Assembly (NCBI RefSeq): GCF_044324785.1
Contig: NZ_CP172127.1
Reading direction: 5' to 3' (one strand)
Source of the DNA: Escherichia coli
GTDB taxonomy: Bacteria; Pseudomonadota; Gammaproteobacteria; Enterobacterales; Enterobacteriaceae
Length of the DNA: 64,000 nt
Below, in pieces: positions 21,001-33,996 of the stretch; position 1 is the first letter of the stretch, and each line of letters begins with the position of its first letter. Position numbers: made by a program.

Positions 21001-24000
21001 GATCAGGCAGTGGTTGATTTCTACTCGCTTGGTTTAGGGGAAATCTACCCGATCGCCGCGTCTCACGGTCGTGGCGTATTAAGTCTGCTGGAGCATGTGC
21101 TGCTGCCGTGGATGGAAGATCTCGCACCGCAAGAGGAAGTCGACGAAGACGCTGAATACTGGGCGCAATTTGAAGCAGAAGAAAACGGCGAAGAAGAAGA
21201 GGAAGATGACTTCGACCCGCAAAGTCTGCCAATCAAACTGGCGATTGTGGGTCGTCCGAACGTAGGTAAGTCTACACTCACGAACCGTATTCTTGGTGAA
21301 GAGCGCGTTGTTGTTTACGACATGCCTGGCACGACGCGTGACAGCATCTACATTCCAATGGAACGCGACGGACGTGAGTATGTACTCATTGACACCGCTG
21401 GCGTACGTAAACGCGGCAAAATCACCGATGCTGTAGAGAAGTTCTCGGTAATCAAAACGTTGCAGGCCATTGAAGATGCCAACGTGGTGATGTTGGTGAT
21501 TGATGCGCGCGAAGGTATTTCCGATCAGGATCTCTCCCTGCTGGGCTTTATTCTCAATAGTGGGCGCTCACTTGTCATTGTGGTGAATAAGTGGGATGGC
21601 CTGAGCCAGGAAGTGAAAGAGCAGGTGAAAGAAACGCTGGACTTCCGTCTGGGCTTTATCGATTTTGCTCGTGTGCACTTTATCTCTGCCTTGCACGGCA
21701 GTGGTGTTGGTAATCTGTTTGAATCAGTACGTGAAGCGTATGACAGCTCCACCCGTCGTGTGGGGACCTCTATGCTGACGCGCATCATGACGATGGCTGT
21801 TGAAGATCACCAGCCGCCGCTGGTACGTGGTCGTCGTGTGAAGCTGAAATATGCCCACGCTGGTGGTTATAACCCGCCGATTGTGGTGATTCACGGTAAC
21901 CAGGTGAAAGACCTGCCGGATTCCTACAAGCGTTACTTGATGAACTACTTCCGCAAATCGCTGGACGTAATGGGATCGCCGATTCGTATTCAGTTCAAAG
22001 AAGGGGAAAACCCGTATGCGAACAAGCGTAACACCCTGACGCCAACCCAGATGCGTAAACGTAAGCGCCTGATGAAGCATATCAAGAAAAGTAAGTAATC
22101 ACTTATCTGGTTTCCCTTTCCACACGGAGAGGGAAACCGAATAACACGCGAGGAGTATTTATGGCACTCAACTGTCCAACCTGCAAAATCCCTCTCGAAC
22201 GCAATGGCGAGACTGCCCACTGTGCAACTTGCGACAAAGACTTTACCGTCCAGGCACTTTGCCCTGAGTGTCATCAGCCGTTACAAGTGTTAAAAGCTTG
22301 TGGTGCTGTGGATTATTTCTGCCAACATGGGCACGGTTTAATATCTAAAAAACGCGTTGAATTTGTTATTGCTTAATATCATGTGAATATATTGTTTTAT
22401 CATTTATATTTAATATGTGAATGGTAAAACAATCTGTTATTAGTGGAATAACTAATGTAATTGAGTGAAATCACTAATTTAAATAATTAAGAATATATTT
22501 ATTCTTTATGACATGCCTTTCTGAATAATCAGGGATACAATATTAAAGCTTATTTTTGACTGTATCATTGTCACAGGGAAAGTGCATGCTGCGATGGAAA
22601 CGCTGTATTATTCTAACATTTATCTCTGGTGCTGCTTTCGCGGCACCAGAGATAAATGTTAAGCAAAACGAATCGTTACCTGATTTAGGTAGCCAGGCAG
22701 CACAGCAGGATGAACAAACCAACAAGGGTAAATCGCTGAAAGAGCGCGGAGCCGATTACGTCATCAACTCCGCCACGCAAGGGTTTGAAAACTTGACCCC
22801 TGAGGCGCTGGAATCTCAGGCCAAAAGCTATCTGCAAAGTCAAATCACCTCAACCGCACAATCTTATATTGAAGACACACTCTCTCCCTACGGTAAGGTC
22901 CGTTCGAACCTCTCCATTGGCCAGGGCGGCGATCTGGATGGCAGTTCCATCGATTATTTTGTTCCCTGGTACGATAATCAAACCACTGTTTATTTCAGTC
23001 AATTTTCTGCGCAACGAAAAGAAGATCGTACAATCGGGAATATTGGTCTTGGAGTAAGACATAATTTTGATGAATGGTTATTGGGTGGAAATATATTTTA
23101 TGATTATGATTTTACCCGAGGACATCGCCGTTTAGGTTTAGGCGGCGAAGCGTGGACTGATTATTTAAAATTCTCTGGCAACTATTATCATCCGCTTTCT
23201 GACTGGAAAGACTCTGAAGATTTCGACTTTTATGAAGAACGCCCTGCGCGCGGCTGGGATATTCGTGCCGAAGCCTGGTTACCTTCTTATCCGCAACTGG
23301 GGGGCAAAGTTGTCTTCGAGCAATATTACGGCGATGAAGTCGCCCTTTTTGGTACGGATAATTTGGAGAAAGATCCCTACGCGGTAACGCTTGGACTGAA
23401 TTATCAACCGGTGCCATTACTGACCGTTGGGACGGATTATAAAGCAGGGACCGGAGATAACAGCGATGTCAGCATTAATGCCACTCTTAATTATCAGTTC
23501 GGCGTTCCGCTAAAAGATCAATTGGATAGCGATAAAGTGAAAGCGGCTCACTCGTTGATGGGCAGTCGTCATGATTTTGTTGAGCGTAATAACTTTATTG
23601 TTCTGGAATACAAAGAAAAAGATCCGCTTGATGTCACCCTGTGGTTAAAAGCGGATGCCACCAACGAGCACCCTGAGTGCGTCATTAAGGACACTCCCGA
23701 AGCGGCCGTCGGGCTGGAAAAATGTAAATGGACCATTAACGCGCTTATCAACCACCACTACAAAATTGTCGCTGCGTCATGGCAGGCGAAAAACAATGCT
23801 GCCCGCACGCTGGTTATGCCGGTTATCAAAGAGAATACCCTGACAGAGGGTAACAATAACCACTGGAACCTGGTGCTGCCCGCCTGGCAGTACAGCTCTG
23901 ACAAAGCCGAACAAGAAAAACTCAATACCTGGCGAGTACGTCTGGCACTGGAAGATGAAAAGGGCAACCGACAGAACTCTGGCATGGTGGAAATCACCGT

Positions 24001-33000: not shown

Positions 33001-33996
33001 AACTGGCTGGTCAGTTTATTATTACTGGTGGGCGCAGGATAAGACTACAGATGGTAAAAATCAGTCACTCAATATGAAAGATGGCACAACGACATTGAAT
33101 GGTAATGCCGCTTATCAGGCGTGTCTGGTGTCTGCACGCGCGACGGTTTCCAGCGTCACACTGACCTCAACAGCGTTTGATGCTGACAGCCAGGCGGCGA
33201 AAGTGAAAAAAGGCGAAGCCATGCCCGTTACCGTGACGGTGAAAGACAGCGCCGGGAATACGGTGCCGAATGTGGAATTTACTTTGAAACGCGGTGAGGC
33301 ATCGCCGCGTAACGCTGGGGCAACGTTGTATGGTGATGTGGTGGCGATGGACGATCTCATCGTTCAGCCGTTATCTGGTTCGGCTGTTACGCTGAGTGAA
33401 AGCGGTAATACCATTAGTGGCATGACAGGCGCGGATGGGACGGCAAGTTTTACGCTCCGCCAGGATAATACCCCTGGTTATAAAACGCCACTGACGGTTA
33501 CTCTGGCTAATTACGCTTCCGCGACAGACACGCTGGACGCTATTTTTACGGTACCAACCAGCCCGAATGTTTCCTCGGCGCACTTTTGGGGACATATGGC
33601 AGACACTGCAGTGGTGAATGGTAAATCGCTACATCGACCGTTGTTAACGACAGAATTGCCGTCCGGGGCTAATCCCGTATCCTCACCGATTATTAACTAC
33701 GAAAACTGGGCTTCTGCACATATCATTGATGCCAGTAAATGGGATATTGCAAGACAGTGTGGCAGCATAGAAAATGCACCGACATACAATGAATTAGAGT
33801 TGTTGCACACTGTTTTTAATTCACTGGGATGGCCGTCTTCACCAAGTTTTCCTTATTTGTCCTCTCAACAGTGTGGGATGGACGAAGGCACTGGAGCACA
33901 GGATTGTAGTATCACGCTAATGAATAAACCGGGTCTGGTGACCTGCTTCCAGTAACCAGCATGGCGCATCTGGCGTGGCCTGGGAGCTACGAATTA

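Follow-up and report, generated by a model that had tools for sequence, protein, structure and literature searches.

In the Escherichia coli contig NZ_CP172127.1 (assembly GCF_044324785.1), the genes yfgJ and xseA are separated by 11.6 kb carrying genes for proteins of the SinH, SinI and RatA kind. This raises the question of whether the segment is an inserted island and how the three proteins could work together at the cell surface. SinH is under development as an antigen for vaccines against extraintestinal E. coli, and carriage of the locus is a mark of the lineages responsible for most urinary-tract and bloodstream infections. We analysed a window of 64,000 nucleotides (the whole stretch of DNA to which all positions below refer). 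The best explanation of the locus as a whole, to which we give a probability of roughly 85%, is that it is the E. coli ila locus, a three-gene relative of Salmonella CS54 encoding a type Ve (inverse autotransporter) adhesin system. The locus has already been published as ila/iatB and as a CS54 relative, and its identification here adds nothing new. Our additions are the nine-module architecture of the RatA-like protein, the kinship of SinI with both of its neighbours, and two hairpin elements with covariation support.

Gene content and boundaries of the locus

A first-pass annotation had placed three co-directional genes in the span 22377–33993. These limits are exact, since yfgJ ends at 22376 and the stop codon of xseA lies at 33994. 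All three open reading frames were found at the claimed coordinates on the + strand. The features of the locus are as follows:

22161..22376, + strand: yfgJ, left flank; zinc-ribbon protein, 71 aa (RefSeq annotation of strain N3)
22377..22585, + strand: leader of sinH, 209 bp, 24.4% GC (composition and 13-locus leader alignment)
22586..24763, + strand: sinH (= iatB), 725 aa (NF033423, Pfam and PDB barrel matches)
22614..22661, + strand: hairpin in sinH codons 10–25 (inverted repeat I1, fold, covariation)
24818..25795, + strand: sinI, 325 aa (NF040711, BLASTP, hhalign, AlphaFold2)
25805..25835, + strand: hairpin 1, GC-rich, after the sinI stop (fold, conservation, compensatory changes)
25836..25872, + strand: hairpin 2, upstream of the ratA start (inverted repeat I4, covariation)
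25916..33955, + strand: RatA-like gene, 2679 aa (PRK15316, Pfam, module HMM)
33994..35364, − strand: xseA, right flank (RefSeq annotation of strain N3)

We checked whether the proteins might be unlike SinH, SinI and RatA. It turned out that each of them scores above its curated family cut-off: SinH with 1486.9 bits against the SinH equivalog NF033423 (cut-off 999, residues 1–725 of 725), SinI with 335.3 bits against NF040711 (cut-off 165), and the third protein with 5398.9 bits against PRK15316, the 'RatA-like protein' family (cut-off 3870). RefSeq gives the same names to all three genes in the copy of strain N3, which is 99.9% identical. The third protein falls below both PRK15315 (RatA, 1996.6 against a cut-off of 3700) and PRK15314 (RatB, 2248.7 against 4079), and a specific orthology to Salmonella RatA or RatB is not supported by these scores.

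The same three genes at the same chromosomal position, with a SinH/IatB of 725 aa, are known from the E. coli ila/iatB loci (CFT073, UTI89, and SMS-3-5 EcSMS35_2661-2660). Compared with other ila loci, the locus described here is only an allele, with its RatA-like protein in the long nine-module form; its sinH shares 83–99% of nucleotides with the other E. coli alleles. Salmonella CS54 (sinH, sinI, ratA, ratB, shdA) has the same der–yfgJ left context and the same sinH–sinI–rat order, and its SinH is 72% identical to ours. In contrast to the five-gene CS54, the window contains one rat gene, no ratB and no classical autotransporter shdA.

Distribution and origin of the locus

The first-pass annotation regarded the segment as an island inserted between yfgJ and xseA in a subset of E. 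coli. The restriction to a subset was borne out, as a full-length copy of sinH was found in 1740 of the 5426 complete E. coli genomes (32%). The published carriage is 98% in phylogroup B2, 100% in F, 100% in G and 67% in D, with none in A/B1 commensals (PMC9937491), and the locus is described as enriched in phylogroups B2, D, F and G (PMC9937491, PMC6714894). In a K-12-like laboratory strain yfgJ and xseA are adjacent, with an overlap of 4 nt, as had been expected, and the matches of E. coli ATCC 8739 and E24377A are confined to the flanks. An insertion as such is not demonstrated: the locus lacks mobility signatures, has host-like GC and occupies this site in at least five further genera or species groups. 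There are no tRNA genes at positions 18000–39000, no direct repeats at the boundaries or in the flanks, and no integrase gene in the span, which is filled by the three genes. The GC content of the span is 50.8%, compared to 51.2% in the window, and that of the coding regions is genome-like (48–52%). The features of a classical mobile genomic island (tRNA/integrase, direct repeats, deviant composition) are therefore missing.

The order yfgJ–sinH–sinI–rat–xseA was also found in E. albertii, E. whittamii, cryptic Escherichia clades, Pseudocitrobacter, Citrobacter and Superficieibacter, and the sinH–sinI–rat order is constant in 15 loci of six genera. The predicted Salmonella counterpart was likewise found: an S. 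enterica contig shows der–yfgJ–sinH–sinI–ratA–ratB, the left-hand context being the same (left side only). This locus was obtained via a protein database; the pattern-based genome scan returned none from Salmonella. Divergence from the K-12-like sequence extends from about 22099 (the der stop) to about 34350 and is wider than the span of the three genes. The yfgJ allele is 66% identical in amino acids to the K-12-like one, and by sliding identity the last ~125 codons of xseA (about 33994–34350) are part of the diverged, island-linked haplotype. XseA from residue 331 to its end is 82% identical to the K-12-like allele and 97% identical to that of a Pseudocitrobacter MAG.

Reviews name the locus a horizontally acquired island (PMC12525524). 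As a rival to the reading given below, the 11.6 kb could be a pathogenicity island that entered between yfgJ and xseA in a forebear of the extraintestinal lineages. Its presence is polymorphic within E. coli, the AT-rich leader counts toward such an origin, and the alleles are very diverse (sinH 80–100% identical in nucleotides, RatA-like proteins of different E. coli loci about 52% in amino acids). The near-identity of the XseA C-terminus with that of Pseudocitrobacter indicates that exchange does occur. We nevertheless consider this origin unlikely, because the position and order are common to so many relatives, including the left side in Salmonella, the mobility signatures are absent, the coding GC is genome-like, and the boundaries are blurred, with deep divergence of yfgJ and of the xseA 3' end between carriers and non-carriers. 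Such blurred boundaries fit old haplotypes swapped by homologous recombination. The shared position, the absent mobility signatures and the host-like GC are better fitted by an old presence with lineage-specific loss or allelic replacement. We take it to be an old syntenic Enterobacteriaceae locus rather than a recently inserted mobile island; in phylogroups A, B1 and E it is missing from most E. coli.

The three proteins and the kinship of SinI with its neighbours

SinH has a Sec signal peptide, an inverse autotransporter (IAT) beta-barrel of the 12-strand type at residues 63–336 (Pfam PF11924, IAT_beta, E 2.4e-108) and a C-terminal passenger at residues 337–725. Among the PDB barrels it matches invasin (4e1t, E 6.6e-73) and intimin (4e1s, E 4.4e-65). 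Three Ig-like domains have been predicted in the SinH allele of ST131 (PMC9937491). Translation of sinH may start at ATG 22586 (725 aa, the RefSeq choice) or at TTG 22556 (735 aa). The sinI gene starts 54 nt after sinH, and the two genes are co-transcribed (PMC12525524).

SinI consists of a signal peptide, a Rat/ZirU-like beta-sandwich (residues ~31–176), a Gly/Ser/Asp linker (177–196) and a C-terminal domain (197–325). A search for IAT_beta in SinI gave no match, and the RatA-like protein likewise has a signal peptide and no barrel. Using BLASTP, we found that SinI residues 218–325 are 35% identical to the tip of SinH (631–725, E 6e-12); judging from sequence, the C-terminal domain of SinI is a paralogue of the SinH tip domain (D3). 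The other half of SinI leads to the opposite neighbour. Its comparison with Rat N-termini using hhalign gave a probability of 88% (E 3e-6), a moderate homology by which the N-terminal parts of SinI and RatA are related to each other. The motif [LK.G].W(Q)x5-6(S/T)T(G/A)x(I/F)xGTxP opens this N-terminal domain right after the signal-peptide cleavage site, and it is also present in Salmonella SinI, RatA and RatB and in remote SinI-like proteins. The two co-varying motif types amount in effect to a single evolutionary split, which, like the moderate strength of the SinI–Rat homology, counts against the explanation favoured here. In the AlphaFold2 model of SinI (pLDDT 79), two beta-sandwich domains are joined by a flexible linker. 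Foldseek comparison of the model with the PDB yielded no significant match, only generic FnIII/Ig tandems (E > 0.01), and a PDB sequence search with SinI gave no match.

Few parts of the locus vary as much as SinI, whose amino acid identity between loci is 36–71%. Its arrangement directly after the IAT gene, with related C-termini, is the same in 15 loci, and remote SinI-like genes lie directly 3' of IAT_beta genes in all three contexts examined.

The RatA-like protein carries, behind its signal peptide, an N-terminal domain (~27–210) followed by nine modules of BIg21 and InvE_AD (formerly named DUF823/DUF824), with boundaries at residues 220, 480, 746, 1025, 1313, 1600, 1881, 2163 and 2439–2679. 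Pfam recognized four BIg21 and four InvE_AD domains over residues 1–1195, and a module HMM applied to the full protein found all nine modules. Each module combines an Ig-like domain with an adhesion domain that resembles the head at the end of Yersinia InvE, and a conserved Cys pair is present in every module. The first-pass description of the protein as repetitive applies at the protein level, where the nine modules are 26–44% mutually identical, but not to the DNA, as the gene has no recent tandem repeats. The number of modules is nine here and in Pseudocitrobacter vendiensis, and five to seven at the other loci compared. Using the N-terminal 215 aa as query, a word-indexed protein search gave mainly fragments and contributed little. 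In Yersinia pseudotuberculosis InvE (PDB 5n40), intimin and invasin, one head caps a passenger fused to the barrel, whereas the RatA-like protein has nine InvE-like heads in tandem on a separate polypeptide lacking a barrel.

Leader and RNA hairpins

The AT-rich leader claimed in the first-pass annotation is real (24.4% GC). Its box TTAAGAATATATTTA at 22487–22501 is conserved across genera in the 13-locus alignment. A tandem repeat of 22 bp (2.2 copies, 22435–22482) lies upstream, and a -10-like TACAAT (22536–22541) and a Shine-Dalgarno sequence AGGGA (22575–22579) follow; we infer that the sinH promoter lies in this leader. Because consensus scans of the leader, the sinI–ratA spacer and the ratA–xseA spacer gave no promoter or terminator above shuffle expectation, the promoter and terminator assignments draw on conservation only. 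Neither the leader nor the spacers contain the ops/RfaH element GGCGGTAGnnTG; its matches are at chance level.

Within the signal-peptide codons of sinH lies a hairpin with a perfect stem of 22 bp and a 4-nt loop (fold z-score -6.3). It is kept in all Escherichia alleles tested, with 10 pairs changed on both sides. In the alignment 80.6% of cells were paired, compared to 35–48% in slid controls, and none of 500 shuffles reached the observed score. The compensatory changes are partly non-synonymous. Directly 3' of the sinI stop, hairpin 1 has a GC-rich stem followed by a short T tract and looks like a weak intrinsic terminator, which the terminator scanner missed because its T tract is short. 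Hairpin 1 is conserved, with compensatory changes, in 13 aligned loci of six genera. Hairpin 2 (16 bp, containing the perfect 15-nt inverted repeat I4) has an invariant core TTTGCTTA...TAAGCAAA followed by GTTGA, and 7 pairs of its helix (helix 3) are changed on both sides. Its motif occurs once in the window, not at all in shuffles and once per related locus. We found covariation in the alignments for both the sinH hairpin and the sinI–ratA pair. No Rfam family reached the gathering threshold, and hits with E < 1 were at chance level only.

The tandem hairpins between sinI and rat, the leader box and the N-terminal motifs are all common to CS54 and the locus described here. Unlike this locus, CS54 has no long hairpin in the 5' codons of sinH, which is also absent from some other genera. 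Two roles for hairpin 2 were tried and rejected: a general rat leader, as its motif is missing from the Salmonella ratA–ratB spacer, and a ratA promoter, as the -10-like bases are unconserved at other loci.

Possible assembly and function of the system

The first-pass annotation considered the functions of SinI and RatA essentially unknown. At the molecular level this holds; however, mutants with deletions of ila genes are reported to be attenuated in a mouse model of urinary-tract infection (Shea et al. 2022, cited in PMC12928451). One of the closest known systems is Salmonella ZirTSU, where an IAT(-like) gene is likewise followed by genes for barrel-less Ig-fold proteins related to the IAT passenger. 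This analogy was drawn earlier (PMC4943183, PMC6714894), and a translocator model after the pattern of ZirT has been put forward for SinH, SinI and Rat-like proteins (PMC4943183). ZirS and ZirU are secreted, and their secretion requires ZirT (cited in PMC4943183). The middle domain of SinI is an Ig-type repeat of the ZirU type, the sole domain in common with ZirU; SinI scores 30 bits against the ZirU family NF040485 (cut-off 100) and is not a member of it. ZirTSU differs from the locus described here in having no giant Rat-type protein.

In the explanation that we favour, SinH would be inserted in the outer membrane and display its Ig-like passenger, and SinI and RatA would reach the periplasm by Sec. 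From there SinH would mediate their export or docking, much as ZirT does for ZirS and ZirU, and the result would be a long multivalent adhesin at the cell surface. On the other side, an IAT barrel is plugged by its own linker, and a protein of 2650 aa with a conserved Cys pair in every module would be physically awkward to pass through it; Heinz et al. raised this difficulty too (PMC4943183).

It is also possible, though we doubt it, that the three proteins are independent: SinH would be a self-sufficient adhesin or biofilm factor, and SinI and RatA would be periplasmic or released otherwise, neither using nor binding SinH. IatB alone is surface-exposed by staining and promotes biofilm in K-12 with the downstream genes absent (PMC6714894), which also speaks against SinH-dependent export. 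The filled barrel lumen points the same way, and the terminator-like hairpin between sinI and ratA means that ratA can be regulated apart from sinH and sinI. However, the strict conservation of the sinH–sinI–rat order in six genera and the SinI-like genes following IAT genes even in remote lineages argue against independence. SinI moreover has one domain in common with SinH and another in common with RatA, a pattern not easily accounted for unless the proteins are in physical contact in some way. This double kinship, seen in a model with two beta-sandwich domains and a flexible linker, would also suit a periplasmic Ig-fold helper of the chaperone/usher kind, which helps the SinH passenger and RatA to fold or to be exported without being a surface component itself; there are precedents for periplasmic Ig-fold proteins acting as chaperones of others with this fold (PMC4943183). 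Such a role for SinI seems improbable to us, as its model shows no significant structural match to PapD/Caf1M-type chaperones, its variability suits an exposed protein better than a housekeeping chaperone, and its closest analogues ZirS and ZirU are secreted.

Within the adhesin system that we favour, expression would normally be low: silencing of the H-NS type probably acts on the AT-rich leader and is lifted by LeuO, and the 22-bp sinH hairpin, the leaky terminator and the second hairpin before ratA may add post-transcriptional control. We tentatively suggest, as one possibility, that the locus contains a built-in logic of control and assembly that has not been described before, consisting of a sinH hairpin silencer, hairpins for the ratA ratio and a shared N-terminal handle. 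The sinH hairpin could silence post-transcriptionally, e.g., through RNase III or a block of translation, and a silencer of this kind would explain why LeuO raises iatB mRNA (PMC6714894) without detectable protein. The leaky terminator and hairpin 2, which occur in each of the six genera examined, could determine how much ratA is expressed relative to sinH and sinI. The ZirU-like N-terminal domain of SinI and all Rat proteins could be the handle by which SinH recognizes them. In the literature we found no earlier description of the conserved hairpins or of the domain shared by SinI and RatA.

If confirmed, the surface route of two barrel-less partners bears on the question of whether inverse autotransporters act as translocators for other proteins, and the conserved RNA structures may explain why the proteins are undetected under laboratory conditions. 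Variation in domain 3 of SinH, in SinI, and in the length and sequence of Rat is relevant to the breadth of vaccine protection.

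The sinH-sinI-ratA locus and its products

Three co-directional open reading frames (ORFs), flanked by der and guaB in the window, lie between yfgJ and xseA:

20626-22098, der
22161-22376, plus strand, yfgJ
22377-22585, 209-bp gap after yfgJ holding the sinH leader, 24.4% GC
22586-24763, plus strand, sinH ORF (725 aa)
24818-25795, plus strand, sinI ORF (325 aa)
25916-33955, plus strand, RatA-like ORF (2679 aa)
33994-35364, xseA, convergent with the three ORFs

The first-pass annotation had described a three-gene block interrupting the yfgJ-xseA order. This observation is exact, since the ORF coordinates agree, megablast matches in the typical non-carriers E24377A, ATCC 8739 and a K-12-like laboratory strain are limited to the flanks, and the K-12-like strain has yfgJ overlapping xseA by 4 nt. 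The AT-rich leader reported before the genes is likewise present, and the GC content of the three genes is 48–52%, against 51.2% for the window.

The identification of the products as SinH, SinI and a RatA-like protein was also correct. All three exceed curated NCBIfam cut-offs: the SinH equivalog (1487 bits, cut-off 999), the SinI family (335 bits, cut-off 165) and PRK15316 "RatA-like protein" (5399 bits, cut-off 3870). The large product scores under the cut-offs of the NCBIfam models of Salmonella RatA and RatB. Pfam places an inverse autotransporter (IAT) barrel at SinH 63-336, which is matched by the solved invasin and intimin barrels, and shows BIg21 and InvE_AD domains in alternation along the large protein. 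In E. coli strain N3, whose copy is 99.9% identical, RefSeq names the products sinH, "SinI family autotransporter-associated protein" and "adhesion domain-containing protein". Elsewhere in the window, pepB (1617-2987) is an intact ORF; it is annotated as frameshifted in strain N3, which is otherwise 99.9% identical, so either the window comes from a different assembly or the N3 entry is wrong at this gene.

The locus is well known, and the finding is not new because publications on ila, IatB and SinH cover the cluster. PMC12928451, citing Shea et al. 2022, names it the ila locus, describes it as probably derived from the Salmonella CS54 island and reports attenuation of ila deletion mutants in murine urinary-tract infection. 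SinH has also been described as IatB, a surface-exposed protein that promotes biofilm and shares 74% identity with Salmonella SinH (PMC6714894). A vaccine candidate, SinH is carried by 98% of B2 strains, 67% of D strains and all F and G strains (100% each; PMC9937491).

Distribution and origin

With 20500-36000 as a megablast query, all but one of 5426 complete E. coli genomes were matched, only 934 of them over at least 80% of the query. Full-length sinH was present in 1740 of the 5426, in identity classes from 80% to 100%, and the typical non-carriers showed the flanks alone; the locus is thus confined to a subset of E. coli, as had been proposed. In E. coli E69, a ~768-bp insertion (L014 10667-11434) breaks sinH near codon 221, and its end GGTGATGCTGCCAACTTACTGATTTAGTGTATGA is an IS1-type terminal repeat.

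We scanned one genome per species, followed by tblastn. The order yfgJ-sinH-sinI-rat-xseA was found in E. coli, E. whittamii, two further Escherichia lineages, three Pseudocitrobacter, two Superficieibacter and one Citrobacter (MGH106). E. albertii has the same yfgJ-sinH-sinI-rat order on an 11.5-kb contig that stops within rat, before xseA. At the locus of a second Citrobacter (R56), tblastn matched neither yfgJ nor xseA. A Salmonella enterica contig reads der-yfgJ-sinH-sinI-ratA-ratB, which bears out the left-hand side of the claimed Salmonella counterpart. Fragments of sinH, sinI and ratA 96–99% identical to the window also occur in assemblies deposited as a Collinsella MAG and Rhizobium wenxiniae (L008, L023, L018); these are most likely E. 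coli contamination or mis-binning.

The block had been called an inserted island. Its location between yfgJ and xseA stands; our results speak against its arrival as a mobile island. Searches around the locus found no tRNA and no flanking direct repeats, and its three genes leave no space for an integrase gene. The differences from the K-12-like strain extend past 22377-33993: they start directly after the der stop (22099) and enter the 3' end of xseA by ~350 nt (33994-34350, the last ~125 codons). The 5' half of yfgJ is 52–55% identical at the nucleotide level, and K-12-like YfgJ is nearer to Pseudocitrobacter YfgJ (72–75%) than to that of the window (66% amino acid identity overall). From residue 331 to its end, XseA is 82% identical to the K-12-like allele and 97% to that of a Pseudocitrobacter MAG. 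Both yfgJ and this 3' part of xseA are thus part of a diverged haplotype that goes with the locus, which suggests old alleles and their exchange across genera by homologous recombination. Because the synteny is wide, signs of mobility were not found, the divergence passes the block and the XseA and YfgJ alleles have these affinities, we infer that the locus is old, that the haplotypes with and without it are deeply diverged and are swapped by homologous recombination, and that some lineages have lost it.

Domain organization of RatA and SinI

The RatA-like protein consists of a signal peptide, an N-terminal domain (~27-210) and nine modules of 240–290 aa, each formed by a BIg21 and an InvE_AD domain. 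The junction motif TSPD...WGHM is almost invariant across modules, and every module has two conserved cysteines. The array is old, since the modules are only 26–44% identical to one another and TRF found no DNA tandem repeats inside the gene. Other loci have five to seven modules; the only other nine-module protein is that of Pseudocitrobacter vendiensis (66% full-length identity). The C-terminal domains of intimin and invasin share a common C-type-lectin-like fold with FGE-type domains in structural classification. On this basis, we interpret each module as an Ig-like domain with a lectin-like head. InvE, intimin and invasin have a single receptor-binding tip, whereas RatA would carry nine copies of such a tip in series. 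In E. coli SCPM-O-B-8794 (L003 13338-19765; 254 + 1881 aa) and a Salmonella contig (L035 13351-19551; 1182 + 883 aa), two ORFs take the place of one rat gene, probably through pseudogenization or frameshifts introduced in sequencing.

In the AlphaFold2 model of SinI (pLDDT 79), a disordered Gly/Ser/Asp linker connects two beta-sandwich domains (31-176 and 197-325); comparison with solved structures gave no significant neighbour. The C-terminal domain and SinH domain 3 are paralogues (35% identity, E 6e-12), and the N-terminal part matches the Rat N-terminus (hhalign probability 88%, E 3e-6, 77 columns). Directly after the predicted signal-peptide cleavage site, SinI and Rat carry the start motif [LK.G].W(Q)x5-6(S/T)T(G/A)x(I/F)xGTxP in 14/14 loci, as do Salmonella SinI, RatA and RatB. 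SinI thus has two domains, one akin to SinH and the other to Rat. Two start-motif types co-vary between SinI and Rat within each locus; since the loci form two groups, the co-variation counts as roughly a single evolutionary event and is weak evidence.

Among 1.84 billion representative proteins searched by profile, the SinI middle domain turned up as a repeat unit in many giant proteins, and the NCBIfam ZirU model matches this unit. Remote SinI-like proteins retain the start-motif core T.xIxG..P. In all three contexts examined, an IAT-barrel gene immediately precedes the gene for the SinI-like protein, so the two gene types form an old and widespread pair. Two of these proteins, P0134 and P0157, keep the N-terminal motif and ZirU-type domain; their C-terminal parts gave no alignment to SinI and include stretches rich in Cys and Trp, e.g. 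WDEAKSWCEQQ...

Conserved hairpins and the sinH leader

The following elements accompany the genes:

22435-22482, leader tandem repeat, 22 bp, 2.2 copies
22487-22501, leader box TTAAGAATATATTTA, conserved from E. coli to Salmonella
22536-22541, -10-like TACAAT, 35 nt after the leader box
22614-22661, nearly perfect 22-bp hairpin within sinH codons 10-25 (signal-peptide codons)
25805-25835, hairpin 1, GC-rich stem and short U tract
25836-25872, hairpin 2, 16-bp stem, invariant core UUUGCUUA...UAAGCAAA then GUUGA (DNA TTTGCTTA...TAAGCAAA then GTTGA)

A consensus promoter scan of the leader made no call, and Rfam has no family for the leader elements, the sinH hairpin or the sinI-ratA hairpins.

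The 136-nt context of the sinH hairpin has a fold z of -6.3. A stem of 16–22 bp is kept in all Escherichia alleles tested (z -7 to -9) bar one clade; Pseudocitrobacter and Citrobacter have shorter stems at this position, and the hairpin is absent from Salmonella, Superficieibacter and that one Escherichia clade. Across 16 sequences, 80.6% of cells were paired against 35–48% in slid controls, ten pairs were altered on both sides and no shuffle attained the observed score; these statistics are indicative only, because the structure was taken from the window and the sequences are related. The compensating changes are partly non-synonymous, e.g. in E. albertii. LeuO raised iatB mRNA ~15-fold, with the protein undetected (PMC6714894). 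The sinH 5' hairpin may be a post-transcriptional silencer.

Both spacer hairpins occur in all loci examined, in six genera including Salmonella, and the hairpin 2 motif is unique in the window. Across 13 sequences, 96.1% of cells were paired against 37–49% in slid controls; eleven pairs were altered on both sides, and 0/500 shuffles reached the score. Hairpin 1 looks like a weak terminator. This fits the reported co-transcription of sinH and sinI (PMC12525524) and suggests that ratA is expressed by read-through. In Escherichia sp. E1V33, the spacer (L007 4553-4842) is 290 nt long against the usual ~115, with a REP-like insertion (GCCTGATGCGCTTCGCTTATCAGGCCTAC...) within the first hairpin, which is duplicated.

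Proposed surface display

The analyses above show the domain content, paralogy and linkage of sinH, sinI and ratA. In the mechanism that we propose, SinH would assemble in the outer membrane and display its passenger, SinI and RatA would cross the inner membrane by Sec, and RatA would provide multivalent binding. Export or anchoring of SinI and RatA would depend on SinH, by analogy with Salmonella ZirT and its secreted partners ZirS and ZirU; a possible role of SinH in translocating SinI and Rat-like proteins, as for ZirT, was put forward by Heinz et al. (PMC4943183). We give this dependence a probability of about 40–45%, as IatB works alone in biofilm assays and the linker of the IAT protein itself plugs the barrel, both of which speak against it. 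Within Escherichia and Pseudocitrobacter, domains 1-2 of the SinH passenger (23594-24763) are more conserved (87–98% amino acid identity) than the barrel (22772-23593; 84–92%), domain 3 is the most variable SinH region (72–81%), and SinI (36–71%) and Rat vary between loci. These differences are compatible with a conserved stalk or docking region and exposed parts that vary; recombination could give the same pattern.

Thus, to a well-known locus our analysis makes modest additions, namely the domain relationships seen in SinI and RatA and a set of conserved hairpins, which are directly testable.
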